DNA from: a virus
IMG/VR virus record: IMGVR_UViG_3300008261_000042
Length of the DNA stretch: 64,000 bases
Direction: 5' to 3' (one strand)
Part shown: positions 22,269 to 36,317 of the stretch, in pieces
Numbering within the stretch: position 1 is the first letter of the stretch
How the letters are laid out: each line of letters begins with the position of its first letter
Notes under the pieces: generated by a model
What the model saw: the letters and a program-made list of their open reading frames with translations, nothing else
Told to the model about the DNA's origin: nothing
Database searches by the model: none
Translations under genes and position numbers: made by a program

Positions 22269-22520
22269 ATGGCTACCACAAAACAACAAACTAAAGAAGA
22301 ATTTCTTTGCCCTGCTCCAGCTATTAATCCAGAAACAGACATGAGTTTTTTGGAGCTTGCTCTAACCAACAATTTAAATAACTTTGTAACTCATGCTGGA
22401 TACATCAACTCGATGGTAATCGGCGGTAAAATGAAAGCAGAAGAAGGTTACGAAGAAATCAAAAAGCTTTACAAAGCTATGAAATCGTCACGTAAATCAC
22501 TGCGAGGATCGTGGTTTTAA
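22269..22520 (+). CDS. Hypothetical cyanophage protein
   Basis: 83 aa ORF, tightly packed with its neighbours. Confidence 0.7.
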   Translation: MATTKQQTKEEFLCPAPAINPETDMSFLELALTNNLNNFVTHAGYINSMVIGGKMKAEEGYEEIKKLYKAMKSSRKSLRGSWF

Positions 22521-22547
22521 CCTAAATACCTCAGACGCAAACAAATT

Positions 22548-22865
22548 ATGCTCTCGACCGAAACTCGTCTTCGCCTAGAAGATATTGCTGCAAGGATTCA
22601 AGGTGGTCTAAGTGTTTCTTTTGAAGAAATGCAATGGGCACAGAAGTGGGCAACTCACAATAAAAGTGCAGAAGCAATTCTAAGAAAGGCGAGGAGGATA
22701 GCAATTCAGGGAGAAGCACCTAAAGGTAGTTTAGATGAATTGATGCAGGGATTAGATATTGGTGACCCAGACCCTTCAAATCATCTGATTGGTCCTCAAG
22801 ACCCTACCACACTTGCTGAGTGGTTTAAACAAGATAAATCAGATGATTGGAGGCAAAGAGACTGA
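22548..22865 (+). CDS. Conserved hypothetical cyanophage protein
   Basis: MLST..RLRLE...GDPDPSNH...WRQRD pattern, preceded by a late-like CTAAATA. Confidence 0.75.
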   Translation: MLSTETRLRLEDIAARIQGGLSVSFEEMQWAQKWATHNKSAEAILRKARRIAIQGEAPKGSLDELMQGLDIGDPDPSNHLIGPQDPTTLAEWFKQDKSDDWRQRD

Positions 22866-23125
22866 TGTTGTATTACTATGCTATATTCACGGTATTTGCT
22901 ATAGTATGTTACATGATTGTCGTTGATAAAAATGTAGCTATATTCATAGAGCTTATGGTACGCTTTGCTTGGGTTCAAGTAAAACGTGCATGGTGGATTG
23001 TTAGGTTTCATCCAATCAATCCAATTCCACGCTGGACATTGAACTGGCGTATCGAACGCATGACTCGACAACTTGAAAAGGACTTAAAAGATGACTCATT
23101 ACGACAAACTGATCGACACGATTAA
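22865..23125 (+). CDS. Small membrane protein
   Basis: TGATG coupling and a hydrophobic N-terminus. Confidence 0.65.
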   Translation: MLYYYAIFTVFAIVCYMIVVDKNVAIFIELMVRFAWVQVKRAWWIVRFHPINPIPRWTLNWRIERMTRQLEKDLKDDSLRQTDRHD

Positions 23126-23267
23126 GCAAGAGCTATGGGAATTTTATGGTGATGTTGCCGTGTGGGATGAACAAAGAGCAGAAGTAGCAGCACACCGCAT
23201 CCTTGAGCATGTAGAAGAATTCCAAACAATTCGTAGTTTAGGTAAGCAATGGAGGGCAAGTGACTGA
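23091..23267 (+). CDS. Hypothetical protein (58 aa)
   Basis: Translated by hand: MTHYDKLIDTIKQELW...WRASD. It ends inside GTGACTGA. Confidence 0.6.
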   Translation: MTHYDKLIDTIKQELWEFYGDVAVWDEQRAEVAAHRILEHVEEFQTIRSLGKQWRASD

Positions 23268-23850
23268 ATATAATAAATTAAGTGATTTTTATTACATCAA
23301 AGAAGATGCTTTAACAGAAGAATTTTGTCAACACTGTATTAAAAAATTCAAATTAGATCCTAATAAGACACAAGGGAAAACTGGTGGAGGGGTAATTTTA
23401 GATATAAAACAATCTACTGATATTAATATATCTAAATTTGATACCTGGAAAGAAGAGGATCAAACTTTTTTTGATTCCCTGACAAAAGCTTTGAATGAAT
23501 ATAGAGATTTACATAAAAGAAAGCTACTTTGGTTAAATACTGATAGGTATGATGATCATGGCTATCAGATACAGGAAACTCTTCCAGGTGGATTTTACAA
23601 GTGGCATCATGACTTTTTTTCTACGGAAAAACAAGCAAGATTTTTAACTTATCTTTGGTATTTAAATACAGTGGAAGAGGGTGGACATACCGAATTTATT
23701 GATGGTACAAAAATCCAACCAGAGACAGGTAAACTTATTATATTTCCTGCTGCTTGGCCATTTTATCATCAAGGAACTCCTCCAATAAAACAAACCAAAT
23801 ATGTTTGTACTGGATGGATATACTTAGATTCTTCTTTTCCAAATTCTTAA
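23260..23850 (+). CDS. 2OG-Fe(II) oxygenase (prolyl 4-hydroxylase-like)
   Basis: YKWHHD (HxD), YLNTVEEGGHTEF, GKLIIFPA..FYHQG and KYVCTGW. Confidence 0.9.
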   Translation: MTEYNKLSDFYYIKEDALTEEFCQHCIKKFKLDPNKTQGKTGGGVILDIKQSTDINISKFDTWKEEDQTFFDSLTKALNEYRDLHKRKLLWLNTDRYDDHGYQIQETLPGGFYKWHHDFFSTEKQARFLTYLWYLNTVEEGGHTEFIDGTKIQPETGKLIIFPAAWPFYHQGTPPIKQTKYVCTGWIYLDSSFPNS

Positions 23851-23851
23851 A

Positions 23852-24061
23852 ATGGACAAATTACATTCTGGTATAACAGTCAGATATATTGGCTGCTCTC
23901 AAGAACAAATTAATTGGGGCAGTAATGATGATCCAAGAGATATGTTAATTGTTGGTGATAAGTATTACATTGAACATGTAGAGCATCATGCTTATCATAC
24001 TAAAATAGAACTTCGTGGTGTAAAGGGTAAATTTAATTCTGTTTGTTTTGAATTATTGTAA
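23852..24061 (+). CDS. Hypothetical protein
   Basis: 69 aa ORF ending in FNSVCFE. Confidence 0.7.
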   Translation: MDKLHSGITVRYIGCSQEQINWGSNDDPRDMLIVGDKYYIEHVEHHAYHTKIELRGVKGKFNSVCFELL

Positions 24062-24063
24062 TT

Positions 24064-24339
24064 ATGACTGAAATTCATTTATTTGTGCAAGAAGGTTGTC
24101 GCCCTTGCATGTATGCCGAAACACAACTCAAGAAAGTAGAAGGATGGGAGAATGTTGTGACCATCACCAATGCTAAGCAGAATGGTGTGTGGTCTGACTT
24201 TGCTCGTGACTGTGGTGTTGATGCCACACCAACGCTCGTGGCATTGACGGATGGCGTGATCATTGCTAAAATGGCAGGGTCTCAGCACATGACTTCTGAT
24301 TTCTGGAGGACTACGGTAGAAAAGCATGGGAATGTTTGA
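24064..24339 (+). CDS. Thioredoxin/glutaredoxin-like protein
   Basis: CRPC redox motif and the cis-Pro motif GVDATPTLV. Confidence 0.8.
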   Translation: MTEIHLFVQEGCRPCMYAETQLKKVEGWENVVTITNAKQNGVWSDFARDCGVDATPTLVALTDGVIIAKMAGSQHMTSDFWRTTVEKHGNV

Positions 24340-24721
24340 TTATTTTCGCTCATCGTATGATTTGGGTGAACCATTTACTAATGTAGTGTGCCAAACCAAA
24401 GACATTGAAGATGGTCTTGGTGGTACAATGACTGACTACTGGTTAGATCCAGCTGGTCAGTTGTGGTATCCTGATTATAGAGGCGCAAGCACATACGAGG
24501 AAATTAAAGAGGATGATCCACGTTATGATCCTAAAAAACTATTTCTAAACTATGAATGGGTTCCAACTGGCAAGCATGGTAAATATGTGCCACACCATAT
24601 CACAAAATATGTTGAAGTATATCCTGAATGGTGGAAAGGAAAATGGGAAGATTGGCCACGGTGCCGATTGCATTTTAGATCTGGCAAACTACAAGATTTT
24701 CAGGATGTGACAGGACGATGA
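24326..24721 (+). CDS. Conserved hypothetical phage protein
   Basis: MGMFDY...QTKD pattern, 131 aa. Confidence 0.75.
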   Translation: MGMFDYFRSSYDLGEPFTNVVCQTKDIEDGLGGTMTDYWLDPAGQLWYPDYRGASTYEEIKEDDPRYDPKKLFLNYEWVPTGKHGKYVPHHITKYVEVYPEWWKGKWEDWPRCRLHFRSGKLQDFQDVTGR

Positions 24722-25092
24722 TTTTTTCACGAGAAGTTAAAGGAACATCACCAAACAAACCTAAAATGAGTTGGTGGGACTATTGGATTGGTCACTGCTG
24801 GTTTACTGGCTGGCAGAGCATCAATCATTCATTCCGTAACTGGGGTGATTTGATGACTGGAAACTGGAAGGATTATGCTCTCATGTTTTATGATGATCCT
24901 TTTGAAGAATGTCGTGATTGCTTCTGGTCTTATCTTGGTGATGATGATACACTACCAAAAGAGTTTCTGGAACATCTACAAGAAATGGTAGATCGTATTG
25001 ATCGTGGGGAAGAAAAACTTATTCCTATGGATTTAGACCAACTGAAACGCATGTCAGATCTTTTAGATAATCAGGAGTCAAATGATGAGTGA
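24718..25092 (+). CDS. Hypothetical protein (Trp-rich)
   Basis: 124 aa ORF with ATGA overlap. Confidence 0.7.
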   Translation: MIFSREVKGTSPNKPKMSWWDYWIGHCWFTGWQSINHSFRNWGDLMTGNWKDYALMFYDDPFEECRDCFWSYLGDDDTLPKEFLEHLQEMVDRIDRGEEKLIPMDLDQLKRMSDLLDNQESNDE

Positions 25093-25291
25093 TAGAGCAC
25101 AAAAATTAATGGATGCTATTTGGCACGAGCGTAACACATGGGCAGATACCGAGCAAAAGCTGGTTGCTGCCGTCATCCGCAAGACCTTGGAACATGTGAA
25201 AACCATGACAGCAGCAAAGCTTAACAACTTGACAGTGGTTGACCGAGGTGATATGATGGCACTGTCCAAAGAGATTGAGACCCTGAAATGA
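25082..25291 (+). CDS. Hypothetical protein
   Basis: Part of the overlapping ORF chain. Confidence 0.65.
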   Translation: MMSDRAQKLMDAIWHERNTWADTEQKLVAAVIRKTLEHVKTMTAAKLNNLTVVDRGDMMALSKEIETLK

Positions 25292-25449
25292 TCAAACCCA
25301 TCGACAAAACCCACTGGGAAGATCTTTATGCTCGTCTGCACGATGCTTATGCTGAGTGTTTGAAACACAACAACCCCACATATGAACAGAAGCTAGCACA
25401 GGTTCTGGATCATATGATTGTAAACAAAAAACATCTTTACATCCGATGA
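25288..25449 (+). CDS. Hypothetical protein (53 aa)
   Basis: Translated by hand: MIKPIDKTHWEDLY...HLYIR. ATGA overlaps at both ends. Confidence 0.65.
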   Translation: MIKPIDKTHWEDLYARLHDAYAECLKHNNPTYEQKLAQVLDHMIVNKKHLYIR

Positions 25450-25631
25450 CTTACCACATCACTAAAGAAATTAAAATTATTGACTATGAAGATGGTTTCA
25501 GTTATGATTTCTCCGCTGATGAGTATGGAACTGTTCGCTTTGGTGATGGGAATGGTGCAACTTGTCAGACCATTCACATTCCCAAAGATTGTATCCAACA
25601 TGTAATTGATGTATTGGAGCAATTCAAATGA
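25446..25631 (+). CDS. Hypothetical protein
   Basis: ATGA overlaps at both ends. Confidence 0.65.
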   Translation: MTYHITKEIKIIDYEDGFSYDFSADEYGTVRFGDGNGATCQTIHIPKDCIQHVIDVLEQFK

Positions 25632-25810
25632 CTGTTGCTGAATGGATTGAAAAACTCAAAGAGTTTCCACTTGACCAAGAAGTAAGGATTACAGATGGGC
25701 ACAAATATCACTTTTATGAAGGTGATTTTGATTTTCAACTCTTTGAGGATGTTGATGGTTCTACCTTTGTAGATATTGGTATTGGTGGATTTGAGGAGGA
25801 TGAAGAATGA
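25628..25810 (+). CDS. Small acidic hypothetical protein
   Basis: MTVAEWIEKLKEFP N-terminus, ATGA overlaps. Confidence 0.65.
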   Translation: MTVAEWIEKLKEFPLDQEVRITDGHKYHFYEGDFDFQLFEDVDGSTFVDIGIGGFEEDEE

Positions 25811-26016
25811 CCTACGACGAACTCTACGAGCATGTGGTAAAGTATGTTGCTATGCCACATACTGCTATCACAAAGCATGATAAACGCCGTGCCTGTCTCA
25901 TTCTGGGAGCATTCATGGAGTTTATGTTAGATTGCGATGACGCTGGCATCATTGTCAGTGACATTGATATGACTGATTTTGTGAATGAAAAACTCGATCA
26001 ACTGGAGGCTAAATGA
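25807..26016 (+). CDS. Hypothetical protein
   Basis: ATGA overlaps. Confidence 0.65.
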   Translation: MTYDELYEHVVKYVAMPHTAITKHDKRRACLILGAFMEFMLDCDDAGIIVSDIDMTDFVNEKLDQLEAK

Positions 26017-26321
26017 GTTTCACCAAGACCATTTCAACTGTTGCTGCTCTTGCAAGTATCTTTGGTGCTGCTGCTGCTGGATGGAAACTTACTGAAGCAA
26101 ATTCACAACAACCACCAACTGTATTAGATCAGAAACTAAATGAGTTGGATCAAAAACTGGAAGATCTTTCTAAGACAGCTCCTGTTCCAGAACCAGAGCC
26201 AGAGCCACTGCCAGAGCCAGTTGCAGAACCTCCTGTGCTTGCTCCAGAGCCAAAACCTGCTATGATGCCACCTGTAGCACCTCCTCCCCCACCTGCACCG
26301 ACCACAAATGGCACTAATTGA
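26013..26321 (+). CDS. Membrane-anchored or secreted coiled-coil, Pro-rich protein
   Basis: Hydrophobic N-terminus, a heptad segment and a PEPEPEP/PPPP tail. Confidence 0.7.
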   Translation: MSFTKTISTVAALASIFGAAAAGWKLTEANSQQPPTVLDQKLNELDQKLEDLSKTAPVPEPEPEPLPEPVAEPPVLAPEPKPAMMPPVAPPPPPAPTTNGTN

Positions 26322-26502
26322 TACTCTAAACTTTTTCATTCAAGATCAAGAAGGTCATCTTCAGTGTCTTGAATGGGACATTCGTGAGGAAACTAATCAA
26401 GAAAATCCAGATCTTGATTGGTATTGTGAGGAATATGATCTATGTAAAGAACGTATAGAAGATCTCCAACAAATCAAATTTATTATTGAGGCACAACAAT
26501 GA
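26308..26502 (+). CDS. Small acidic hypothetical protein
   Basis: 64 aa ORF in the chain. Confidence 0.65.
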   Translation: MALIDTLNFFIQDQEGHLQCLEWDIREETNQENPDLDWYCEEYDLCKERIEDLQQIKFIIEAQQ

Positions 26503-26849
26503 GCGGCGGACATTTTGGTGACTGCGGTTATGATTACTACAAGGTAGCACAGTTTGCTGATGAGTTGGAAGTAGAAATCCAAAACAACAACAAAAAGCTA
26601 GATGAGTATGAGTATGCTCCCAATTTTTCACCAGAAACTATCAAGTATTTAAGGAAGCAACTTCGTCAGATGCGTAAGGTATCAGAAATCATGCGTCATA
26701 TTGATTATCTGTATTCTGGTGATCATGGTGAAGATAGTTTTATGTATCGTGTAAAAGAAGTGGAGAAACACTGGGAGGAGATTGAAGAGATAGTTACACG
26801 TATGGATAATCATCCAGATGGATGGAATGAAACTGGAGACGGAGTATGA
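26499..26849 (+). CDS. Conserved hypothetical phage protein
   Basis: MSGGHF...IDYLYSGDHGEDSF pattern. Confidence 0.75.
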   Translation: MSGGHFGDCGYDYYKVAQFADELEVEIQNNNKKLDEYEYAPNFSPETIKYLRKQLRQMRKVSEIMRHIDYLYSGDHGEDSFMYRVKEVEKHWEEIEEIVTRMDNHPDGWNETGDGV

Positions 26850-27052
26850 CTGATAAAACTAAACTACTTAAAATGGTTGAAGATGCTATCGACCGATCAC
26901 CAGATAACAGTGAGATTATGGCACAGAATGTGATTGATGCTACTGCTGACTGGTTTGTGATTGTGTTAGAATCTATGGGCATCCAACCATCCTCCATCCC
27001 AACTCTGCTACGATGGCAAGCACACCAACACGAGTATCTTACCGATGACTGA
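26846..27052 (+). CDS. Hypothetical protein
   Basis: Starts and ends within ATGACTGA junctions. Confidence 0.65.
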   Translation: MTDKTKLLKMVEDAIDRSPDNSEIMAQNVIDATADWFVIVLESMGIQPSSIPTLLRWQAHQHEYLTDD

Positions 27053-27338
27053 CCTTGACGATCTTTTAAAACCAGAAAACAAGTTTGTTGTTCCAGTAAC
27101 AGTTGAACTTTCAAGTTATGACCAAGTAAAACTGCGAAAGTTCATCAACCTTCATTATCTTGGTGATGTGGATGCTAATGAATTTGTAGATGGAACTTAC
27201 AAAGCAAAGTATCCAGAGAAAGAAACTACAGAGTTCCAGAATGCAGTATGGAAAACTAATGTTGGTTATACAGTAAATCTTGCTGTAGAGTTTGATGAAA
27301 AAGGTGTCCCTACATTTGAGGTTGTGAAAAATGGTTGA
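27045..27338 (+). CDS. Hypothetical protein
   Basis: 97 aa, with 8 nt overlaps at both ends. Confidence 0.7.
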   Translation: MTDLDDLLKPENKFVVPVTVELSSYDQVKLRKFINLHYLGDVDANEFVDGTYKAKYPEKETTEFQNAVWKTNVGYTVNLAVEFDEKGVPTFEVVKNG

Positions 27339-27516
27339 GAAGGTAAAATTTGTATCTGTCACTCGTGTAATTGACGACCGCAAAGGTATTCATTATCTTG
27401 ATGCTATTGATGAGAATGGACATCACTGGACAGCAGAGATGGATAATAAACAAGAGAAATGGTTAGTGTATTATAAACTGTGGACTAAAGACCCTCAACA
27501 ACCTTATGACCTATGA
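27331..27516 (+). CDS. Hypothetical protein
   Basis: 61 aa ORF in the chain. Confidence 0.65.
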   Translation: MVEKVKFVSVTRVIDDRKGIHYLDAIDENGHHWTAEMDNKQEKWLVYYKLWTKDPQQPYDL

Positions 27517-27614
27517 CTGAATGTGTTTCTGACCCTACAACTTGGATTGATGTTGCCCAACTTGCAGTTTTTATGGTTCCTGTCTCTATTTTTCTTTGGA
27601 GAGTATCACAATAA
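27513..27614 (+). CDS. 33 aa single-TM microprotein
   Basis: MTECVSDPTTWIDVAQLAVFMVPVSIFLWRVSQ, coupled by ATGA upstream and TAATG downstream. Confidence 0.55.
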   Translation: MTECVSDPTTWIDVAQLAVFMVPVSIFLWRVSQ

Positions 27615-27826
27615 TGACTGACCTCAAACTCTGTAAAGATTGTAAGTGGTATAAGAAAGATTGGAATGCTCGTATCACTGGATTTGGAGACACATTTGAC
27701 TTATGCCTTCATCCTCTTGTGACTGAAAATGTTGTGACTGGAAAATCTAATGGTAAGTATTGTGATCAGGCGAGAAAGTATTATGGATGTGGTATGGAAG
27801 GTAAGTATTGGGAGGCACGGAAATGA
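27614..27826 (+). CDS. Cys-rich, putative Zn-binding small protein
   Basis: CKDCKW...C..HP...C...R...CG.EGKYW. Confidence 0.7.
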   Translation: MTDLKLCKDCKWYKKDWNARITGFGDTFDLCLHPLVTENVVTGKSNGKYCDQARKYYGCGMEGKYWEARK

Positions 27827-27993
27827 TTGAAATTGAAAAGCAGTATAAACTCACACTCGCAGAAGACCAAGCACGACAACTCCATTCTATGCTAAAAGCT
27901 AATAAGGAACTATTGGATATTGGGTCTGGGTATGATGAACTGCGACCACTTTATCGGGAACTAAAAGAACTCTTTGATAATGGAATACGATGA
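27823..27993 (+). CDS. Hypothetical protein
   Basis: GGAGG RBS and ATGA overlaps. Confidence 0.65.
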   Translation: MIEIEKQYKLTLAEDQARQLHSMLKANKELLDIGSGYDELRPLYRELKELFDNGIR

Positions 27994-28253
27994 CTGAATG
28001 GAAATCAACTGAAATCAACGAAGGACAACCAATAAATCCTGAATTGACGGTAGATCCTGAATGGTATAAAACTAAATTCCCAGACTATCAACTCATCACA
28101 CCAAAGATATCTAATTGGACTTGTTATCTATTTGGTGGTACTCCTGGTAATGGTATTCAATGGACACCACATGAAGGAAAAGTTCCTAATGCTTGGTATA
28201 GGTTCTGGATGAAAGTATTCTTTGATTGTAAATGGGTGAAATATGATGACTAA
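27990..28253 (+). CDS. Hypothetical protein
   Basis: 87 aa with an ATGACTGA start. Confidence 0.7.
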   Translation: MTEWKSTEINEGQPINPELTVDPEWYKTKFPDYQLITPKISNWTCYLFGGTPGNGIQWTPHEGKVPNAWYRFWMKVFFDCKWVKYDD

Positions 28254-28422
28254 CAGCGAAAAATTTGCACATCTCATCAAAGTTCTCAAAAATTACGCAC
28301 AACAACCAACTTGTTATAATCTAAATCCAGATTATGAATATCCACACCATAGTTGGGATATTTTTGAAGATGGTTCTGATTATGGTGAGATTATGTTTGC
28401 TCGCACATTATCCTTGGAGTGA
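28246..28422 (+). CDS. Hypothetical protein (58 aa)
   Basis: Translated by hand: MTNSEKFAHLIKVLK...DIFEDGSDYGEIMFARTLSLE. Overlaps the upstream gene as ATGACTAA. Confidence 0.6.
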   Translation: MTNSEKFAHLIKVLKNYAQQPTCYNLNPDYEYPHHSWDIFEDGSDYGEIMFARTLSLE

Positions 28423-28437
28423 TGAATTGGAGAACCT

Positions 28438-29079
28438 ATGACTGCTTGTAAATACTGGGATTGTGGTTGGTGTTATGCTCCTAATTATCTGAAAACAAAC
28501 GCAATCAACAGCACTTGTGTTAATCCCTACAAATGCCCTATCTCTCCTCTATCTGAACCAGTACAATACGAAACTCCTATGACTGAAATTGAAGAAGTAA
28601 AAGCACAAATCAAAGTGCTTGAAAAGAAACTCTCATTCCTTGAAGAACTGGAAAAAACAAAATCACGAGTAGAAGAAGCATACAAAGATTGGTGGGGTGA
28701 GTATCCTGAAACTGGAACAACTGCTTCTAATACTGATGATGCAAGGTGGTTGGGTTTCCAAGCAGGTTACAATGCTGCTTATGAAGAAAAGGTAAGTGAA
28801 ACCGCACAAGAACGAGGAGAACGAGTTCATAATGAAATGGAAGAAACTATCAAAATCCACGATGGTTATGGTGTAGTTGATTACACTACGATGACTGAAC
28901 GCAACTTTAAACAAGAACTTGTACATTCCTGTTATTATGACATGGAATATGGCCACGACAGCGAAACAATTGATTATGATTGTCTGATTGGTATTATCAC
29001 CGAGTTGTGTGATAGGATTGAAAAACTTGAGGACAAAGTAGATGAACTTAACCCTAACCCGAGATGGAGTTTGGATTGA
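28438..29079 (+). CDS. Hypothetical protein, apparent in-frame fusion of three small modules
   Basis: Internal in-frame ATGACTGA starts at 28579 and 28891. Confidence 0.7.
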   Translation: MTACKYWDCGWCYAPNYLKTNAINSTCVNPYKCPISPLSEPVQYETPMTEIEEVKAQIKVLEKKLSFLEELEKTKSRVEEAYKDWWGEYPETGTTASNTDDARWLGFQAGYNAAYEEKVSETAQERGERVHNEMEETIKIHDGYGVVDYTTMTERNFKQELVHSCYYDMEYGHDSETIDYDCLIGIITELCDRIEKLEDKVDELNPNPRWSLD

Positions 29080-29798
29080 TGACTGAACACAATCTACCAG
29101 ACAAGGATGATGCTCCTTGGTTAAACACACAATACGATGGATTTATGACACACGAAGAAATTCTTGAAGAAGCAGCACGACGAGAAGCAGAAAACAAAGC
29201 ATGGACAGCAGTAGAAAAACTTTATGCTGAAAATGGTGATGCTTTAAAAGAACTTGCTGATATCGAAAAGGAAGAACGAATGGATGCAATTAGAACTGCA
29301 ATTTCTGGTATCGGTAAGTATTCTGATGCTCTTAAAGAACTTCGTAAGATTGAGCATGAAGAACTGATTGAAGAACTGCAAGCAAAGAAGAAAGAAAACT
29401 TCCAACTGGTTGCTGATGCTTGTATGAAAGAGTATGAGCAGAAATATCATCGTGATGTATTCCCAGTAGATGAATACTGGGTGTATATGGTTTCTGAATA
29501 CTTCGGAACTGGTGAAGGTCAAACTGTGTGTGTTATGATGACACAGGCAAATCCTGGTCATGCAGAAGATTTTGAAACATCTACCAATAGATATGTTCCC
29601 TGCACTACAAAGCAATATCGTGCTGTGAGAGCATTCCATGAGCAGTTTGGCACTTGGTATCTTCATGGTCTCAGATTCCTCAGTAAAGAAGATTTCTTCA
29701 GTGAATATTCATATTACATTCCTCCAGCGATGATGAAACTCTCCAATAAGAGTTGCTACAAAGATTTTCACACTCATGTTCATTATAACTTCTCATGA
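29079..29798 (+). CDS. Hypothetical protein (coiled-coil N-terminal half)
   Basis: TGATG coupling, 239 aa. Confidence 0.7.
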   Translation: MTEHNLPDKDDAPWLNTQYDGFMTHEEILEEAARREAENKAWTAVEKLYAENGDALKELADIEKEERMDAIRTAISGIGKYSDALKELRKIEHEELIEELQAKKKENFQLVADACMKEYEQKYHRDVFPVDEYWVYMVSEYFGTGEGQTVCVMMTQANPGHAEDFETSTNRYVPCTTKQYRAVRAFHEQFGTWYLHGLRFLSKEDFFSEYSYYIPPAMMKLSNKSCYKDFHTHVHYNFS

Positions 29799-29998
29799 CA
29801 GACAAAGAACTCTACAACCCTGATGAGTTTCTGCTTGATAATATCAAAGCATATCATTATGAGGTGATGGATGAAGGACATCATGTGTGGATGGCATTCT
29901 ATTTTGAGAATGGTAACACAGGACACTTGAATATTTTCCTAAATGATGGTAAAATTAACACACGTTATGAGGAATGGGATGAAAGAGTGGCTCAGTGA
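29795..29998 (+). CDS. Hypothetical protein
   Basis: ATGA overlap. Confidence 0.65.
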   Translation: MTDKELYNPDEFLLDNIKAYHYEVMDEGHHVWMAFYFENGNTGHLNIFLNDGKINTRYEEWDERVAQ

Positions 29999-30179
29999 TG
30001 CCTATTGGCATTGGCGTAATGTGTTTTATTTTAGATTCAATGAATACAATGATAGCATCGATAGTGGTGCTTTCTTTGAAGAATTAAACTATGGATGGTA
30101 TGAAATGTATATCGATCCATATGAGGATTGGTATACTCCTACAATCTCACCTGAACGCAAATTGAGGTTAGGTGAATGA
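29979..30179 (+). CDS. Hypothetical protein (Trp/Tyr-rich)
   Basis: ORF in the chain. Confidence 0.6.
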   Translation: MKEWLSDAYWHWRNVFYFRFNEYNDSIDSGAFFEELNYGWYEMYIDPYEDWYTPTISPERKLRLGE

Positions 30180-30388
30180 TCATTCCTGTGTTCATTTATA
30201 AGAGATTGATCGGATTTAAACCGATTATGTACACGCCATTGTGGTGGTGGTTACGATTGATGATGCACCAAGGATTTAGATTTGATGATTATCACATTTG
30301 GGGATCATTCTGGTCGTCATTGAATGGTGGCTGGAATGATATGACATATAAATGGGTGTACAAAACTTATTGGGGAGAAGACAAATGA
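30176..30388 (+). CDS. Hypothetical protein (Trp-rich)
   Basis: ATGA overlap. Confidence 0.6.
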   Translation: MIIPVFIYKRLIGFKPIMYTPLWWWLRLMMHQGFRFDDYHIWGSFWSSLNGGWNDMTYKWVYKTYWGEDK

Positions 30389-30570
30389 ATGTACCAACAC
30401 AATCTGAACTGATTCACCTTAAAATTCAAGCAGCAATGCGTGAACATATTTTTGAGGAAGATCAAATGAAATATCTTGGTATTCGTGAAGATAACCACTG
30501 GTATCTTGTCGGTGGAGAGCACGAAGTGCCTGTAACTGCTATCCAAATGTTTGAGATGCAAAATGATTGA
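30385..30570 (+). CDS. Hypothetical protein
   Basis: GGAG RBS and ATGA overlap. Confidence 0.65.
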   Translation: MNVPTQSELIHLKIQAAMREHIFEEDQMKYLGIREDNHWYLVGGEHEVPVTAIQMFEMQND

Positions 30571-30718
30571 ATGTACAGAAAATGAAGATGGATCACTTCT
30601 CATCACATGGGATAAAGATGATCCTGTAGAATCAATGCTTAACACATGGACAGAGGAAGACTTTGTTCGTGCTATAATGGATGAAGCAAACTTGCATTTG
30701 AAAAATGAAACTGTTTAA
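30563..30718 (+). CDS. Hypothetical acidic protein (51 aa)
   Basis: Translated by hand: MIECTENEDGSLLITWD...WTEEDF. Overlaps the upstream gene as ATGATTGA. Confidence 0.6.
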   Translation: MIECTENEDGSLLITWDKDDPVESMLNTWTEEDFVRAIMDEANLHLKNETV

Positions 30719-30983
30719 ATTTGAATATCGTGAAGATTTTGGACATGAGTGGTATTTCAAGTTTTTGTTTAACAAGAACTGGGGACTGCTTCAACTGTCA
30801 ATTGATTGGGGTGAATTCCCAGGCTATCCATACATTCAGGTAACATCTGGTATGGGGAAGCTTTTTGGTATTCTACTCTGTCTGGGCAAATTCGGATTTT
30901 GTGCTGAGGTGCTTGCCAGAACCTGGCGTCTGTGCTATGATGACGTGAAGTTTGAACTTGAGGACTTGACCAATGGCAATTGA
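30705..30983 (+). CDS. Hypothetical protein
   Basis: 92 aa ORF. Confidence 0.65.
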   Translation: MKLFKFEYREDFGHEWYFKFLFNKNWGLLQLSIDWGEFPGYPYIQVTSGMGKLFGILLCLGKFGFCAEVLARTWRLCYDDVKFELEDLTNGN

Positions 30984-31578
30984 AGGCTACGTCAAATTTG
31001 AATACTTTAGTAAAGGTGTTCAACCTTATTACAACAAAAGTATCTTTCCTGAACTTCTTGATGATGAAAATATTGTCATCAAGACACCTAACATTGAGAT
31101 GAGTTATCATCAATACTTTGGGTTGTTTAAGAAGTTCTTGATGTCTGTTGGTTTTAATGAAAAGAACATCATGCAAGGTGCATGTCATATCGCATTCAAT
31201 GAAGCGAATGACGAGAAAACAATGCGTGAGGTTGCTGAAGAGTATGATCTCATCATGTCTGAACAACTGCCTGAGATTATTGCAGACAGTAAAAAACAGG
31301 ATGAAGAATGGATTGAAAAGACTAATGACAGTTGGGAGCAACGATACTGGGCATTGTATCATAAAATGCAACAGCTTGAAGGTGATAGCTCAGAAAAATC
31401 ATTGGTAGATAGAGTTCAGGAAGGATATTCATATTGGAATAATCTTGTTCCTGGGTCACCAGAAGCAAGAGAGCAGGGATGCACTTGTCCTGTGCTAGAT
31501 AATATGGAAATGCCCGAAGATAAAAAATGGGTTAATAGCAAGTGTCCTATTCATGGTAAGAAAAACAAAGAAGAATAA
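30973..31578 (+). CDS. Hypothetical protein with C-terminal Cys/His module
   Basis: Ends with PGSPEAREQGCTCPVLDN...CPIHG. Confidence 0.7.
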   Translation: MAIEGYVKFEYFSKGVQPYYNKSIFPELLDDENIVIKTPNIEMSYHQYFGLFKKFLMSVGFNEKNIMQGACHIAFNEANDEKTMREVAEEYDLIMSEQLPEIIADSKKQDEEWIEKTNDSWEQRYWALYHKMQQLEGDSSEKSLVDRVQEGYSYWNNLVPGSPEAREQGCTCPVLDNMEMPEDKKWVNSKCPIHGKKNKEE

Positions 31579-31822
31579 ATTTGAACCATTTAAATTTCCA
31601 TACGAGAAATTCCCTATTTGCTTACAGCATTATGAAAAGGAAGATCTTAGAACTTGTTGGTTTGAATGTGAAGAGCATTTCCAAAAGTATGTTTCTAGAT
31701 ACAATTTAAATCCAAATGAAATTACATTCAAGCATAAAGATGGTGTGGAGATGGTGGTCGAAAGCACTGGGGGAAAAAGCGTCCGAGTGCGACAACGAAG
31801 CAGACAAAGTAGCAGTGATTAG
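31553..31822 (+). CDS. Hypothetical cyanophage protein
   Basis: FPYEKFP...CWFECEEH...KY..RY pattern. Confidence 0.65.
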   Translation: MVRKTKKNKFEPFKFPYEKFPICLQHYEKEDLRTCWFECEEHFQKYVSRYNLNPNEITFKHKDGVEMVVESTGGKSVRVRQRSRQSSSD

Positions 31823-32057
31823 GACATTTATATTTGCCACATATTTAATCACTAATGGTTTTATTGTGGCAAATGCTGTTCGTCACTGGAATGATAGAGA
31901 AATTAAAGTTGAGGTACAAATCTATGAAAATCCAAACTATGCAGAAGAGTTACACACAGAAGGATGGAACCGTGTGGGAGTGGAACGAAACTCCCGAATT
32001 GAGGGAGTTTATCACACAGGAACAGTCAAAGCAAATCGTACAGGTGAATTTGAATGA
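31740..32057 (+). CDS. Small membrane protein
   Basis: WRWWSKALGEKA...ADKVAVIRT, then a TM segment and RHW. Confidence 0.65.
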   Translation: MVWRWWSKALGEKASECDNEADKVAVIRTFIFATYLITNGFIVANAVRHWNDREIKVEVQIYENPNYAEELHTEGWNRVGVERNSRIEGVYHTGTVKANRTGEFE

Positions 32058-32079
32058 AAAACCACAACGAGCATCCTGA
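31939..32079 (+). CDS. Small hypothetical protein overlapping the upstream gene
   Basis: MQKSYTQKDGTVWEWNETPEL. Confidence 0.45.
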   Translation: MQKSYTQKDGTVWEWNETPELREFITQEQSKQIVQVNLNEKPQRAS

Positions 32080-32290
32080 AATTGCTGAGGTGAATTGGAT
32101 TGATGATACATTCCGTGTTGAACAATCTCGTTGGAAAACTTGGCGAAGTTATGCGAAAGATGGTAAAGAAATCATCACATCTCTTACTGAAGAACTTTGC
32201 ATCTCAGCAACAAGATTCTACCTCAAAGGTAAACAAGAAGGCTTTCAAGAATGTAAAATTTACGAAGGGGTGGTAGGTGGAAAACTCTAG
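32054..32290 (+). CDS. Conserved hypothetical cyanophage protein
   Basis: IDDTFRVE...TRFYLK..QEG...Y.GVVGGKL. Confidence 0.75.
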   Translation: MKNHNEHPEIAEVNWIDDTFRVEQSRWKTWRSYAKDGKEIITSLTEELCISATRFYLKGKQEGFQECKIYEGVVGGKL

Positions 32291-32441
32291 CTATCCTTAT
32301 CATGAACTAGATCCTACTACGCCATGGTATGAATGGTTATGCTACTGTGAAATCTGTCATCAATTAGATGCACCTGGGCAACCAAACTGGAATAGATATA
32401 TGCGATATCGTAATTATCTTAAAGAGGTTGGTGTACTATGA
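32277..32441 (+). CDS. Small hypothetical protein with CxxC
   Basis: Translated by hand from a GTG start: ENSSYPYHELDPTTPWYEWLCYCEICHQL...YRNYLKEVGVL. Confidence 0.6.
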   Translation: MENSSYPYHELDPTTPWYEWLCYCEICHQLDAPGQPNWNRYMRYRNYLKEVGVL

Positions 32442-32626
32442 GTAATTACACTTTTGATTACACAAGTAATGACGATCGAATAACAGAATTAGAAGCTCGC
32501 ATAGATTATCTTGAACGAGAGAATGTTAGCTTGACCAATGAATTGTATGAGCTACACAATCGAATAGATGCTATCGAGGTTTGTAACGACATCAACACAC
32601 TTAGAAACTTTACACTTGAAAAATAA
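32438..32626 (+). CDS. Small coiled-coil protein
   Basis: RITELEARIDYLERENVSLTNELYEL heptads. Confidence 0.65.
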   Translation: MSNYTFDYTSNDDRITELEARIDYLERENVSLTNELYELHNRIDAIEVCNDINTLRNFTLEK

Positions 32627-32847
32627 TGGCACTATCTGAATCAGTTGAAACTAGTTTGAAAGAGGCAGAAGCATCACTTCGTAATGCTTTAGCCTATGCT
32701 GCACGTCAAGAACGTCCCCTAGTATGTAAAACTATCTCCACTCTCATTGCTGACATTGATCAGCTGATGAAGTTTGACAATTTGATTGATAAACTTGAAG
32801 AGAGGATGGAAGGTGGTAAAGGAAACTGGGGACCATTTAGTTCGTGA
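32626..32847 (+). CDS. Conserved hypothetical cyanophage protein
   Basis: MALSESVETSLKEAEASLRNALAYAARQERP. Confidence 0.75.
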   Translation: MALSESVETSLKEAEASLRNALAYAARQERPLVCKTISTLIADIDQLMKFDNLIDKLEERMEGGKGNWGPFSS

Positions 32848-32937
32848 CTATTTGTTACGACATACTTAAGTAAACATTAAGAACTGGCACTATCTGGTTA
32901 AATAGTGTTAGGATTTCAACACATTCGGGATCACACG

Positions 32938-33099
32938 ATGACTCTTCCTCACAAGACAGAACAACTTTCTGAACAAGAGTGGTCAGAAATGACTGCACTC
33001 AAACGTGCAATCAATCTACGTCCACAGTCTGTTGTTCCTGAAAAGATGGAAATGTTTACAGAATATCTTGTTCGTAGTTTGCGAGAGAAGGGTGGGTGA
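32938..33099 (+). CDS. Hypothetical protein
   Basis: EWSEMTALKRAI..PQSVVPEKMEMFTEYLVRSL. Confidence 0.65.
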   Translation: MTLPHKTEQLSEQEWSEMTALKRAINLRPQSVVPEKMEMFTEYLVRSLREKGG

Positions 33100-33153
33100 C
33101 AATTTAAAAACTGGCACAAGGGGGGTTTCGCACCCCCTTTTTTCATGTATATT
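33096..33153 (+). promoter_or_regulatory. Cassette of palindrome, terminator hairpin and extended -10 early promoter
   Basis: GTGACAATTtaaaAACTGGCACA, then GGGGGT-TTCGC-ACCCCC-TTTTTT, then TG-TATATT. Confidence 0.65.
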
Positions 33154-33178
33154 AAGTGGGTCGAGAGGACACCACCCA

Positions 33179-33328
33179 ATGAAAACCACTTACATTTTCC
33201 TTGCATTCATTGCCATCCTCATGTACAATGGTATGCTCGCCAAACGTGATGCTGAATTGTTCAGAGCATATGATAAAGTATGTGCTGAACTATCACAACA
33301 ACACCCTGATTGCAAACACGCAAAATGA
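33179..33328 (+). CDS. Small membrane/secreted protein
   Basis: MKTTYIFLAFIAILMYNG. Confidence 0.6.
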   Translation: MKTTYIFLAFIAILMYNGMLAKRDAELFRAYDKVCAELSQQHPDCKHAK

Positions 33329-33471
33329 AAACATTCAATGTAATACTTGAGCACTGGCAGACCAGAAAGCTTAAGTTCATCACAGTTGAAGAATGCAAAG
33401 ATATGGATGATTGTATCAACCATGTCAAGGAAACTGAACCCGACTTTGAAATTATCCAAATCACACCATGA
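33325..33471 (+). CDS. Hypothetical protein (48 aa)
   Basis: Translated by hand; ATGA overlaps at both ends. Confidence 0.55.
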   Translation: MKTFNVILEHWQTRKLKFITVEECKDMDDCINHVKETEPDFEIIQITP

Positions 33472-33671
33472 CTGTTATCAAAGATTGCTTCGATGATCCC
33501 ACTGTCACACTGTCAGTGTCAGCTCGGGAAGTTAAATTGATCATGCTTGCAATGAATCGTTTTAACGATGAATTGTATAAAGGTTCATATAAGATGGACG
33601 ATGATACCACACAGCGGTGGGAGTCCATCATGGACTATGTGACAGATGAAGCACTGACACACGGTGCTTGA
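33468..33671 (+). CDS. Hypothetical protein
   Basis: 67 aa ORF. Confidence 0.6.
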   Translation: MTVIKDCFDDPTVTLSVSAREVKLIMLAMNRFNDELYKGSYKMDDDTTQRWESIMDYVTDEALTHGA

Positions 33672-33696
33672 CCTCACCCCCAACCTCCCCTATACT
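33638..33696 (+). promoter_or_regulatory. Palindrome plus sigma70-type early promoter
   Basis: TGTGACAGATgaagCACTGACACA, then TTGACC, 17 nt spacer, TATACT. Confidence 0.75.
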
Positions 33697-33724
33697 GATT
33701 AAGTCAACCACACAGGACAAAGAC

Positions 33725-34183
33725 ATGGGCACCCGCTCCCGCATCGGCTATGAACTTCCAGACCACACTGTTGTTTCTGTTTACTGCCATTATGATGGTT
33801 ATGTTGAGCACAATGGTCGTGTTCTGGTTGAACATTACACTGACCGTGATGCGGTAAAAGAACTGATCGACGGTGGTAGCATGTCTTCGCTTCACACTAC
33901 TCACCTGTGGGTCACTGCTGCTGTTCGTGACCAGGATGGTCAGATCGTGCGTGACATGGATGGCAACTGGGTGTATTCTCCCACTCGTGATGCTCAGCCT
34001 CTCTATCACACTGAGCGTGGTGAAGAGCTTCAAATTGATCACACTAGCTTCGATGAGTTTGTTTCTGGTAACTGCAGCGAGGAGTATGCTTACCTGTTTG
34101 ACCTAAACGGCAACTGGAAAGCATACAAAATTGGCTGGGGTCCAGTTGAGCGTATCGAACTTCCCAACTACGTTACTGCCTGA
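33725..34183 (+). CDS. Conserved hypothetical phage protein
   Basis: MGTRSRIG...SVYCHYDGY...G..L..HY...EEYAYLF pattern. Start is the first ATG after the promoter. Confidence 0.8.
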   Translation: MGTRSRIGYELPDHTVVSVYCHYDGYVEHNGRVLVEHYTDRDAVKELIDGGSMSSLHTTHLWVTAAVRDQDGQIVRDMDGNWVYSPTRDAQPLYHTERGEELQIDHTSFDEFVSGNCSEEYAYLFDLNGNWKAYKIGWGPVERIELPNYVTA

Positions 34184-34186
34184 ACA

Positions 34187-34411
34187 ATGAACGAAAACGA
34201 CATTACTATTTCTCTCACAGAATCTCAGCACGAACTGTTGAATGAGATTCTATGTCATGCTGTGAGTTCTGTGCAACTCGTGTCACCATATGATGACGGG
34301 ATGTACGATCTGCCACTTGACAACCCGATCATTCAACGCTATACTATGATTGAAAATCTCAGGGAAATGTTCCTTGAGCTTTGGTCCGATCGATTTGAAC
34401 TTTCCCGATGA
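34187..34411 (+). CDS. Hypothetical protein
   Basis: 74 aa ORF. Confidence 0.65.
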   Translation: MNENDITISLTESQHELLNEILCHAVSSVQLVSPYDDGMYDLPLDNPIIQRYTMIENLREMFLELWSDRFELSR

Positions 34412-34677
34412 AATTTACTGAACTCGACTTTCAACCTCACCCTAACTGGAATGGTGTTCAAGCAAAACACTTCTTTGATAATGGTTATGGAGTGTCTGTA
34501 ATTAAAGCTTCCGAATCTTACGGTGGTTCTGAAGGACTTTATGAACTTGCGGTTCTTAAAGGTGGTGAAGAAGATTGGAAAATTTGCTATGATACTCCTA
34601 TCACAGATGATGTTATTGGGCATTTGACCCCAGAAGATATTGACACCATTCTTAATCAAGTTGAGGAATTAAAATGA
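34408..34677 (+). CDS. Conserved hypothetical phage protein
   Basis: FDNGYGVSVI...SYGG..GLYELAVL...YDTPITDDVIG.L. Confidence 0.8.
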   Translation: MKFTELDFQPHPNWNGVQAKHFFDNGYGVSVIKASESYGGSEGLYELAVLKGGEEDWKICYDTPITDDVIGHLTPEDIDTILNQVEELK

Positions 34678-34865
34678 AAACTACTACTGCTCTTGGTGTT
34701 GTATTTGGAGTTGTTCTCCTTGCAACAGTAGGATTACTTGTCCAAACGTGGTTGCTTGGCATCATTCTACCTTGGTTTGGTGTCTCACTGACATTCTGGC
34801 AAAACTTTGCTATTATTGTTCTTGCTAACATGATTACTTATAGTTCTGGAGGTTCTTCCAAATGA
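34674..34865 (+). CDS. Small two-TM membrane protein
   Basis: Hydrophobic along its whole length. Confidence 0.65.
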   Translation: MKTTTALGVVFGVVLLATVGLLVQTWLLGIILPWFGVSLTFWQNFAIIVLANMITYSSGGSSK

Positions 34866-35266
34866 AACAAAACGGATATATTGACCCTGTTGCTGTTTTT
34901 GTTATTGGTGGTGTGATTGTGCTTGGTGGTCTCATCTTCATTGGTGGTCCACAATACAATGTGTGGCAACAATCTCTTGCTGGTAAAGCTGAGCTTCAGA
35001 AAGCAGAATACACTCGCCAGGTGGCTGTGCTTGAAGCACAAGCAAAGAAAGATTCTGCATCACAACTTGCTGAAGCAGAGATTATTCGTGCTCAAGGTGT
35101 TGCTAAGGCAAACCAAATCATTGGTGATAGCCTGAAGGACAACCGTGAGTATCTACAGTACCTGTACATCACTGGTATTGAAGATGGTAGCAAGAATGGC
35201 AATGTGACCATTTATGTTCCCACCGAAGGTGGAATGCCCGTCCCTACTCTCCAAATGAACAAATGA
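34862..35266 (+). CDS. Membrane protein resembling the C-terminal coiled coil of SPFH/prohibitin proteins
   Basis: N-terminal TM, AEAEIIRAQGVAKANQIIGDSL...YLQYL and IYVPTE. Confidence 0.7.
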   Translation: MKQNGYIDPVAVFVIGGVIVLGGLIFIGGPQYNVWQQSLAGKAELQKAEYTRQVAVLEAQAKKDSASQLAEAEIIRAQGVAKANQIIGDSLKDNREYLQYLYITGIEDGSKNGNVTIYVPTEGGMPVPTLQMNK

Positions 35267-35427
35267 TTGAAATTCTGCTTGCATCCTTGATCTCCACTAC
35301 ACCCATGGACAAATCAGAACAGATTAATCGGTTCTGTGCTTATGTGGTTGGTATTCCATATGCTAGCGATAATTTTACTGATGAAGAGTGGCAAAGATTT
35401 GTATATTGTAGAGAACATCTAAAATGA
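35263..35427 (+). CDS. Hypothetical protein (54 aa)
   Basis: Translated by hand: MIEILLAS...FCAYVVGIPYASDNFTDEEW. Confidence 0.6.
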   Translation: MIEILLASLISTTPMDKSEQINRFCAYVVGIPYASDNFTDEEWQRFVYCREHLK

Positions 35428-35606
35428 TAACCAAAGATGGATATGCTACGGTTCCCTGGGGGAGCCGTTTTGTTTTGATCTATAATGGCTACCAGCTCAG
35501 CGACCACAAGACGTATGAGCAGGCTGTGGACGCCTTGAAGAAGCATCGTAGCCTCACCAGGCAGCCCAAGACCAAATCAAAGGCTAAGCTGCCCCTGGAT
35601 GATTAA
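35424..35606 (+). CDS. Hypothetical protein
   Basis: ITKDGYATVPWG...IYNG.Q. Confidence 0.65.
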   Translation: MITKDGYATVPWGSRFVLIYNGYQLSDHKTYEQAVDALKKHRSLTRQPKTKSKAKLPLDD

Positions 35607-35625
35607 CAAATGCCACAGACCACGC

Positions 35626-35654
35626 TTGCACTCCGCAGCCACCTGTGCTATGAT
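35626..35654 (+). promoter_or_regulatory. Sigma70-type early promoter
   Basis: TTGCAC, 17 nt spacer, TG-C-TATGAT. A half-site AATGCCACA lies upstream. Confidence 0.7.
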
Positions 35655-35682
35655 ACGGGGGTAGTCAAGGCACAGGAGCCTT

Positions 35683-35883
35683 ATGACCCAACCAGTTTTC
35701 GTAAAGAAGAAACCATTTCCGCAAGGTGCCGCAATGCCATACATGGTACGTGGCATTGTAAACTCAAAACGTGTGGAATTGATCGATCGTCGTACCAATT
35801 TCCGCATTGGCATTTATCCTAATGAGGATTGTGCCTATGAAGCCCGTCGTTTTCAACTCATGCGTGAAGGTTATGAAGTGTGA
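35683..35883 (+). CDS. Hypothetical protein
   Basis: AGGAG RBS directly after the promoter. Confidence 0.65.
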   Translation: MTQPVFVKKKPFPQGAAMPYMVRGIVNSKRVELIDRRTNFRIGIYPNEDCAYEARRFQLMREGYEV

Positions 35884-36016
35884 AGTACAGCTCTACGTTG
35901 CAGGCACCGTATTTTACGAGACAGTCATTGCTCGTAATTATGAAGAAGCAAAACAAACTGCTCTTGCCCGCAATCCTAAAGCTAAAGTCATCGCTGTTAC
36001 TGCTAAGTTTAACTGA
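35873..36016 (+). CDS. Conserved small cyanophage protein
   Basis: MKCEVQLYVAGTVF.E.V.ARNY.EA...ALARNP. Confidence 0.7.
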   Translation: MKCEVQLYVAGTVFYETVIARNYEEAKQTALARNPKAKVIAVTAKFN

Positions 36017-36174
36017 TGAATCTAACTGAAGAAGAACTTAACTACATCATGTCTGCTATGCAGCTGATGAGTACAAGACAAGAAGCATTCCTTCAACAAC
36101 AATGCAATTGTGATTCAAGGAAACTCTATGCTAAACTATTTGATCTTAATGAGGTACTTCACGATGCAAACTGA
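36016..36174 (+). CDS. Hypothetical protein (52 aa)
   Basis: Translated by hand; TGATG coupling. Confidence 0.55.
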   Translation: MNLTEEELNYIMSAMQLMSTRQEAFLQQQCNCDSRKLYAKLFDLNEVLHDAN

Positions 36175-36283: not shown

Positions 36284-36317
36284 TCTAAATACTAGTTGTC
36301 TCTAAAACCATCTTAAC

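Follow-up and report, generated by a model that had tools for sequence, protein, structure and literature searches.

Overlapping stop/start junctions, at which neighbouring genes are coupled by termination and re-initiation, have been described repeatedly (PMC6728339; PMC10666635; bioRxiv 10.64898/2026.09.10.750558), with coupling reported at 4-nucleotide (nt) and 1-nt overlaps (PMC6728339). In the hyperplastic regions of T4-type phages, modular shuffling is mediated by promoter-early stem-loop (PeSL) cassettes (Arbiol et al. 2010, PMC2839356; Comeau et al. 2014, PMC4122927). For the ORFan block of Synechococcus phage S-PM2 known as the "ORFanage", the searched passages of Puxty et al. 2015 (PMC4503421) report too few PeSL elements and regard the PeSL model as inadequate, describe the spontaneous laboratory loss in S-PM2d, for which mispackaging or illegitimate recombination is proposed, and make no mention of a start word or junction structure. 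Fourth-site adenine enrichment, which creates an out-of-frame stop 'ambush', has been described by Abrahams and Hurst 2017 (PMC5850271). The stretch considered here, IMG/VR virus record IMGVR_UViG_3300008261_000042 (the window, meaning the whole 64,000 nt analysed), carries an array of small co-directional genes in which one eight-base start word, ATGACTGA, recurs. Many unrelated small genes open with this word (Met-Thr-Glu/Asp), which reads as a start codon in frame 0 and as TGA in each of the other two frames. Hendrix and colleagues reportedly account for phage mosaicism, with its novel joints at gene boundaries, by illegitimate recombination followed by selection, and illegitimate recombination filtered by selection is the classical explanation of gene-boundary mosaicism.

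The array resembles the described overlap junctions in that co-directional genes share 1, 4 or 8 nt, the classes that dominate it, but it differs in that one start word, which belongs to the downstream gene and serves many partners, joins the 4-nt and 8-nt solutions, and in that the unused stop is kept by nucleotide-level selection. Overlaps of 4, 1 and 8 nt (bioRxiv 10.64898/2026.09.10.750558), fourth-site adenine enrichment and gene-boundary mosaicism are already known; new are the single start word joining both overlap solutions, its rank as top start word in several cyanophage genera, the selection at the synonymous level, and the use of both frames by different partners. Literature searches on the word in phage and on out-of-frame stops near starts surfaced no description of a dual-stop start word. 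As in the PeSL systems, the setting is a non-essential small-ORFan region of a T4-like phage with gene-by-gene gain, loss and replacement without an integrase; here, however, the putative seam is an 8-nt stretch of coding sequence, and the array contains no repeated promoter/stem-loop elements. Promoter-like sites (57 vs 56.2 in shuffles) and terminator-like sites (14 vs 11.5) show no excess between 21 and 40 kb of the window, and no repeat family within 22–38 kb marks gene boundaries in the manner of PeSL. The single-gene homology blocks that begin 0–3 nt from gene starts, together with raw deletions that fall anywhere, correspond to phage mosaicism, to which the locus adds a 5' feature of the mobile gene that makes a new joint work in two of three frames. 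As in the ambush, ATGA gives an immediate +1-frame TGA, and A followed by C at the second codon is a general bias, but the stop at nt 6–8 is enriched only where an upstream gene abuts. Integron cassette arrays are alike by analogy only, through co-directional small promoterless genes gained or lost singly; no cassette-bounding repeats emerged from a search that covered direct repeats and was not aimed at inverted attC-type repeats or an integrase.

The enrichment of the word emerges most clearly from related loci. Relatives comprise 52 IMG/VR loci with 10-kb flanks, retrieved through the 239-amino-acid (aa) protein encoded at 29079–29798 and numbered with the prefix L, plus regions of S-PM2 and S-CREM1; the background set consists of 53 related loci (873 kb) whose 2728 predicted proteins group into 683 families. 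Across these 53 loci the gene strand carries 321 copies of ATGACTGA, against 11 on the opposite strand. With the window included, the gene-strand copies number 332, of which 251 lie at called gene starts and 62 lie internally in frame; 42 of these 62 align, from residue 1–3 onward, with the N-terminus of a stand-alone homologue elsewhere. Among the 683 families the word is the commonest start 8-mer, opening 46 families against 19.9 expected from codon-2/codon-3 frequencies (Fisher p = 4e-11), and the next most frequent start words, ATGACTAA (24 families) and ATGATTGA (16), likewise place stops in both other frames. The dinucleotide GA follows ACT at codon 2 in 46 of 106 families (0.43), against 0.126 internally. 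Independent annotation displays the same usage: in the homologous S-PM2 ORFanage, ten annotated coding sequences (CDS) inside the deleted block begin exactly on ATGACTGA, as do 14 CDS of S-SRM01. A Shine–Dalgarno (SD)-like sequence lies 5' of just 48% of the word-bearing families. In the control regions the word is close to background, with one copy in the T4 early region, where a second stop accompanies 0 of 13 4-nt-overlap junctions, and two copies in the Syn1 core-gene region. Beyond the 8 nt, word-bearing families show no conservation save a weak G at −11 and −8, and Pfam and PHROGs searches with word-bearing genes return unrelated hits or none; paralogy and membership of a longer shared element are therefore both ruled out as sources of the repetition.

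Analysis of the packed junctions reveals that the second stop is under selection at the nucleotide level, and solely where genes are tightly packed. The 1430 unique junctions of the related loci include 418 four-nt, 117 eight-nt and 144 one-nt overlaps. At the 418 four-nt overlaps, where a stop at nt 6–8 remains unused, such a triplet is nevertheless present in 35%, against 11% of internal codon pairs and 9% of genes preceded by a gap >30 nt. Position 4 is A at 82% of the 8-nt-overlap junctions, against ~52% of non-overlapping ones and 38.5% after internal ATG. The word itself opens 58 of 659 coupled genes and 6 of 265 genes with a gap >30 nt, being ~4-fold rarer in the latter. Synonymous codon choice follows the same pattern: where codon 2 is Thr, ACT is used in 69 of 73 cases (95%) if the next dinucleotide is GA, AA or AG, and in 33 of 59 (56%) otherwise (p = 1e-7), whereas the internal control is reversed (0.40 for stop-completing contexts vs 0.49). 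The effect extends to families never found at an 8-nt overlap (36/40 vs 31/57, p = 1e-4). Moreover, the triplet at nt 6–8 tracks stop identity, with TGA in 78 cases (31 expected), TAA in 43 (21), TAG in 6 (9) and TGG in 3 (21), a pattern that speaks against both a protein-binding motif and plain codon bias; the lack of the second stop in isolated genes argues against a pure frameshift trap.

The word travels with the downstream gene. In orthologues of the genes at 26846, 27045, 27513, 27614, 28579, 28891 and 29079 the word persists, intact or with one base changed, next to 24 nt of unrelated upstream sequence. For instance, the orthologues of the 26846 gene in L024 and S-PM2 retain it next to unrelated upstream sequence, the 27614 gene keeps ATGAC(T/C)GA in seven loci with unrelated sequence before it, and the 24064 gene has orthologues in L018 and L024 that begin at the same place after unrelated sequence. 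Families starting with ATGACTGA are found behind up to 19 different upstream families, which terminate on either TGA of the word or at a stop of their own, and a single family displays 8-nt overlaps at six junctions, 4-nt overlaps at another six and 1-nt overlaps at two, besides several short gaps. Together with the in-frame fusions in the window and in L003, these mixed overlaps bear out the initial annotation in its claim that the joint terminates an upstream gene in either alternative frame and fuses with it in the third.

The window presents all of these outcomes. Gene starts were assigned by coverage tiling of the + strand; a codon-usage gene model trained on large structural genes was rejected, having missed most of the small genes. 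The 62 junctions between the 63 genes of the array (22.3–38 kb) comprise 26 four-nt (ATGA), nine eight-nt (ATGNNTGA) and seven one-nt (TGATG/TAATG) overlaps. The window has 14 copies of the degenerate form RTGACTGA, whereas dinucleotide shuffles average 6.0 and reach 13 at most, and 13 of the copies lie on the + (gene) strand, all within 23260–29086: eight at gene starts, two at internal module starts of a chimeric 213-aa open reading frame (ORF), and three at internal in-frame codons. The clustering is significant, with six word starts in ten consecutive genes (permutation p = 0.0024). All ten (A/G)TGACTGA sites of the initial annotation are present; it had not listed the three at 24428, 25969 and 27719, which are the internal in-frame Met/Val-Thr-Asp/Glu codons. 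Inside any ORF the word can stand only in the frame ATG-ACT-GAN, because the other two frames contain TGA. In the tiling model, as had been claimed, the upstream gene overlaps by 4 nt and stops on the first TGA at 26846, 27513 and 27990, it overlaps by 8 nt and stops on the second at 23260 and 27045, and the sites at 28579 and 28891 lie in frame within ORF 28438–29079, at codons 48 and 152. The variants behave as described too, with a TAA ending the upstream gene at 28246, 4-nt overlaps at 27823 and 35263, and 8-nt overlaps at 30563 and 27331, where homology common to at least eight loci begins. At 24064, 27614 and 29079 the upstream gene uses its own stop and neither TGA of the word. The pair 29795–29998 / 29979–30179 shows the outcome when a downstream start lacks the second-frame stop: homologues of the upstream gene lose similarity 10–20 nt before its stop, at the ATG of the next gene (29979), so the 5' end of the neighbour provides the final six codons for the upstream protein.

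When the word arrives in the third frame, an in-frame fusion results, as seen in the window and in other loci. In the chimeric ORF 28438–29079, the module from 28579 corresponds to the N-terminal ~104 aa of a family encoded elsewhere by a stand-alone gene, and the module from 28891 to a complete ~62-aa family; PHROG 16080, a 59-aa family, matches residues 151–200 of the 213-aa ORF. Homology blocks begin at both 28579 and 28891, while the fusion breakpoint itself lies at 28885/28886, ~6 nt upstream of the word at 28891. In L002 the two modules belong to distinct genes (194 and 62 aa) separated by one of 64 aa; compared with this arrangement, the window lacks the 3' part of the first gene and the whole middle gene, and reads through in frame. 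A comparable event distinguishes L003 (2394–3848) from L007 (2584–4267), in which a 225-nt in-frame deletion with ~5 nt of microhomology joins three neighbouring genes into a 484-aa ORF.

Breakpoints were mapped in two ways, since no collinear partner for the array was found among the phage records and IMG/VR contigs searched, and mosaic-block and family-adjacency analyses took the place of close-relative alignment. Local BLAST of window 22.0–38.5 kb against all loci shows homology running one gene at a time. Blocks start 0–3 nt from gene starts at many junctions, with the word present or not (for example at 25085, 25288, 25446, 25628, 25807, 26013, 26499, 27331, 27823, 29795, 29979, 34408, 34674 and 34862), and their 3' ends are more ragged than their starts. 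Where the flanks of a replacement reach 93% identity or more, 8 of 10 ends fall within 10 nt of a start codon. Clean cassette indels, defined as Y-[X1..Xk]-Z in one locus and Y-Z adjacent in another, number 359; identical start words flank 21 of them (~6%), against a background of 2.4–3.9%, and 11 of the 174 single-gene indels, against 3.5% (p = 0.064), while ATGA on both flanks does not exceed background. When the two genome records are compared, the 9541-bp deletion of S-PM2d extends from a point 13 nt inside ORF 017 to mid-ORF 050, its microhomology being 1 nt, and the 184- and 225-nt deletions between near-identical contigs break mid-gene with 3–7 nt of microhomology. The 184-nt deletion, in L003, takes out most of a gene that starts with ATGACTGA. 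Homology blocks end at gene boundaries, and recent or unselected events break anywhere, with 1–7 nt of microhomology. A single 66-aa gene, present in L012 (3734–3934) and absent from L025 (~12771) in contigs ~93% identical, is flanked by the 9-nt direct repeat GAGGACTGA, which consists of an SD-like sequence and a stop. A 3.5-kb nine-gene block of L024 (IMGVR_UViG_3300043420_000984, 5622–9196), absent from L017, is bounded by ~66-nt repeats with a GC-rich hairpin; this boundary constitutes a PeSL-like seam in a relative, and the other indels examined among relatives are not so bounded. Most of the nine pure indels measure 85–261 nt and separate metagenome contigs at least 99.8% identical (L003–L009, L015, L028–L030); they show little or no microhomology, have lengths mostly indivisible by three, sit in or across genes, and were left uncounted because they may be assembly artefacts.

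These observations are probably explained by ATGACTGA acting as a frame-independent termination and re-initiation joint of polycistronic ORFan arrays, with selection on junction function, rather than targeted recombination, behind the enrichment. With TGA in both other frames, the word terminates an upstream gene at most 5 nt from the AUG in two of three frames. Short overlaps would stay minimal, and the terminating ribosome would be left where re-initiation is possible, giving translational coupling, whereas the third frame would yield an in-frame fusion of the kind seen in ORF 28438–29079. Genes would be re-assorted singly between phages, the raw events being mostly illegitimate recombination at arbitrary sites; survivors of selection would have breakpoints at gene boundaries, and the start word would move with the downstream gene. 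The two stops would be retained since, in one genome or another, each serves to end an upstream partner. The initial annotation had combined this dual-stop function, which is supported, with gene exchange by recombination at the 8-mer, which mostly is not.

In that second proposal the 8-mer is itself the recombination site, and microhomology exchange between copies of ATGACTGA inserts, deletes and swaps genes, builds the array and spreads the word. Such targeting appears improbable, for breaks occur at gene starts with or without the word, ~94% of the 359 indels are not word-flanked, ATGA flanks stay at background, and several breakpoints lie away from the 8-mer, those of S-PM2d and of the 184- and 225-nt deletions inside genes, that of the 28891 fusion upstream of the word, and those of the L024 block at hairpin repeats. 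Several results nevertheless favour recombination at the word and weigh against a purely junctional explanation. When alternative downstream neighbours of one upstream family are paired, 7.5% of the unrelated pairs have the same start word, where 4.9% would be expected (p = 0.003); word-bearing genes are adjacent beyond expectation (odds ratio 2.0, p = 0.011), as are dual-stop-start genes (odds ratio 2.5, p = 1e-7); in L012 and L026 a common upstream gene and the adjoining ATGACTGAA lead into different genes, and a 918-nt insert in L036 relative to L042 ends exactly at ATGACTGA, both suggestive. Regional heterogeneity could explain the start-word sharing and the dual-stop adjacency alike. The single-gene indel between GAGGACTGA repeats can be counted for this proposal too, though also against the word itself as the site. 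Further points count against the joint as the favoured explanation: gene starts outside the annotated genomes come from a tiling model that favours starts abutting an upstream stop, all loci were sampled around one anchor gene, and family counts ignore phylogeny. The upstream-diversity test of word-bearing families is weak (0.47 upstream neighbours per locus vs 0.40 and 0.37; p = 0.066 and 0.013), its downstream-neighbour control trending in the same direction. Moreover, the enrichment over N-terminal codon bias, for which the initial annotation had proposed a check, holds across the families of related phages and does not reach significance within the window, where eight word starts are observed against 5.1 expected (16 ACT at codon 2, 20 GA at nt 7–8, 63 genes; p = 0.068). 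Between a joint and a recombination site lies the possibility, rather unlikely though it could hold, that the dual-stop start word (ATGA-N-T-GA/AA, chiefly ATGACTGA) is an evolved portability adaptor: carriers would survive transfer into foreign arrays more often, since whichever gene lay upstream would at once be terminated and coupled, and replacements would tend to keep the resident word, which would then spread and occasionally serve as a recombination seam.

Other accounts dispense with the upstream partner or with selection altogether. If the out-of-frame stops formed a trap that aborts frameshifted or mis-initiated ribosomes at the AUG irrespective of the upstream gene, this would fit the fourth-site A enrichment with a +1 TGA trap reported across bacteria (PMC5850271), the raised A at position 4 in uncoupled genes (54% vs 38.5% after internal ATG) and the persistence of the synonymous ACT signal in families never at an 8-nt overlap. 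A trap seems quite unlikely, however, because the second stop falls to 9% behind gaps >30 nt, against 11% internally, the word is ~4-fold rarer there, both stops are working stops of upstream genes in relatives, and the T4 early region has no such second stop. There is very little probability that the word is an RNA recognition motif (AUGACUGA) at the initiation regions of co-regulated early genes, bound for example by a RegA-like repressor or an early-mRNA endonuclease. The word does overlap the AUG in many small genes of a block that is presumably co-expressed, regA is present in T4-like cyanophages (annotated in Syn1), and T4 RegA binds sites overlapping start codons; yet the enriched set is defined by stop identity (ATGACTGA, ATGACTAA, ATGATTGA), with TGG at nt 6–8 depleted 7-fold, the flanks are not conserved, and enrichment depends on an abutting upstream gene. 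Chance combined with ordinary biases, namely ATGA overlaps, an A-then-C second codon and acidic small proteins, with the window cluster as a local accident or a shared donor block, can draw on the window count alone and on the known general A/C preference at the second codon (PMC5850271, citing Tang et al. 2010). This reading is largely refuted and highly improbable, given the excess among families and the preference for GA after ACT at codon 2; the synonymous-codon test and the stop-specific pattern mean that amino-acid or codon preference cannot be the source.

Coordinates of the array, the start words and the chimeric ORF in the window
Feature	Position	Strand	Remarks
Array of ~63 small co-directional genes (ORFanage / hyperplastic region)	22269..37960	+	tiling gene model and S-PM2 matches
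GTGACTGA, start of 196-aa 2OG-Fe(II) oxygenase gene (23260–23850)	23260..23267	+	upstream ORF 23091–23267 stops at second TGA
ATGACTGA, start of 91-aa gene 24064–24339	24064..24071	+	upstream stop TAA 24059–24061, then 2-nt gap
Internal in-frame ATGACTGA, codon 33 of 24332–24721, no junction	24428..24435	+	orthologues vary: ATGACCGA, ATGTCTGA
Internal in-frame ATGACTGA, codon 55 of 25807–26016	25969..25976	+	
ATGACTGA, start of 68-aa gene	26846..26853	+	upstream gene 26499–26849 stops at first TGA
ATGACTGA, start of 97-aa gene	27045..27052	+	upstream gene 26846–27052 stops at second TGA
Variant ATGGTTGA, start of 61-aa gene	27331..27338	+	upstream stop TGA at nt 6–8; other frame without stop
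ATGACTGA, start of 33-aa gene	27513..27520	+	upstream stop is first TGA
ATGACTGA, start of 70-aa gene	27614..27621	+	upstream ends TAATG, 1-nt overlap
Internal in-frame GTGACTGA, codon 36 of 27614–27826	27719..27726	+	
Variant ATGATTGA, start of 56-aa gene, 4-nt overlap	27823..27830	+	
ATGACTGA, start of 87-aa gene	27990..27997	+	upstream stop is first TGA
Variant ATGACTAA, start of 58-aa gene	28246..28253	+	upstream stop is TAA at nt 6–8
Chimeric 213-aa ORF, three modules fused in frame	28438..29079	+	47-aa leader; ~104 aa from 28579; ~62 aa from 28891
ATGACTGA within chimeric ORF	28579..28586	+	stand-alone start codon in at least 7 other loci; same in-frame leader 5' in at least 5 loci
ATGACTGA within chimeric ORF	28891..28898	+	start codon of stand-alone ~62-aa gene in many loci
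ATGACTGA, start of 239-aa gene	29079..29086	+	upstream ORF ends TGATG, 1-nt overlap; relatives in 52 loci
Variant ATGATTGA, start of 51-aa gene, 8-nt overlap	30563..30570	+	
Variant ATGATTGA, start of 54-aa gene, 4-nt overlap	35263..35270	+	

The window belongs to a T4-like cyanomyovirus with a G+C content of 35%. Megablast returns only patchy matches of 80–87% nucleotide identity, to Synechococcus phages S-PM2, S-SZBM1, S-SRM01 and S-CREM1, all Kyanoviridae; window 24.3–29.8 kb corresponds, through such patchy matches, to S-PM2 2856–15183, an interval that overlaps the ORFanage gone in S-PM2d. The product of 23260–23850, which has a GTG start within GTGACTGA, matches Pfam PF13640 and PHROG 61 and is the sole clear family assignment among the genes scanned. 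Very large + strand ORFs lie on both sides of the array, at 15–6215 (2066 aa), 14166–19580 (1804 aa) and 47092–57237 (3381 aa), and window 2330–6485 shows short nucleotide matches to genes annotated as tail or tail-fibre in other cyanophages. Downstream of the array, a ~24-nt palindrome, TGTGCCAC-N8-GTGGCACA, occurs in five copies (38165–38188, 38221–38244, 38946–38975, 40174–40197 and 40615–40638), possibly an operator or terminator-like hairpin family. Additionally, two AT-rich direct-repeat clusters with a period of ~27–34 nt, for example ATACATAGCAAACGTTATGTATT, occupy 41315–41424 and 43186–43515; the intergenic gaps around them are larger than in the array, and they could be iteron-like or a promoter cluster.

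Read in this way, the unit of exchange in these arrays is the single gene, from its ATG to the next ATG, whose stop codon is often supplied by the downstream neighbour, and in several phage genera selection acts on the nucleotides of the word at these junctions. This provides a concrete, testable rule for why newly juxtaposed genes stay expressed, and bears on how T4-like cyanophages gain, test and lose hundreds of ORFans. In practical terms, the word marks the true start codons of very short genes and flags in-frame chimeric ORFs merged by gene callers, such as 28438–29079 and the 484-aa ORF in L003; it also suggests compact frame-independent coupling joints for synthetic operons. If the dual-stop start word were indeed a portability adaptor, it would represent a gene-level mobility adaptation held in the first three codons, and an assembly rule for cyanophage ORFanages.

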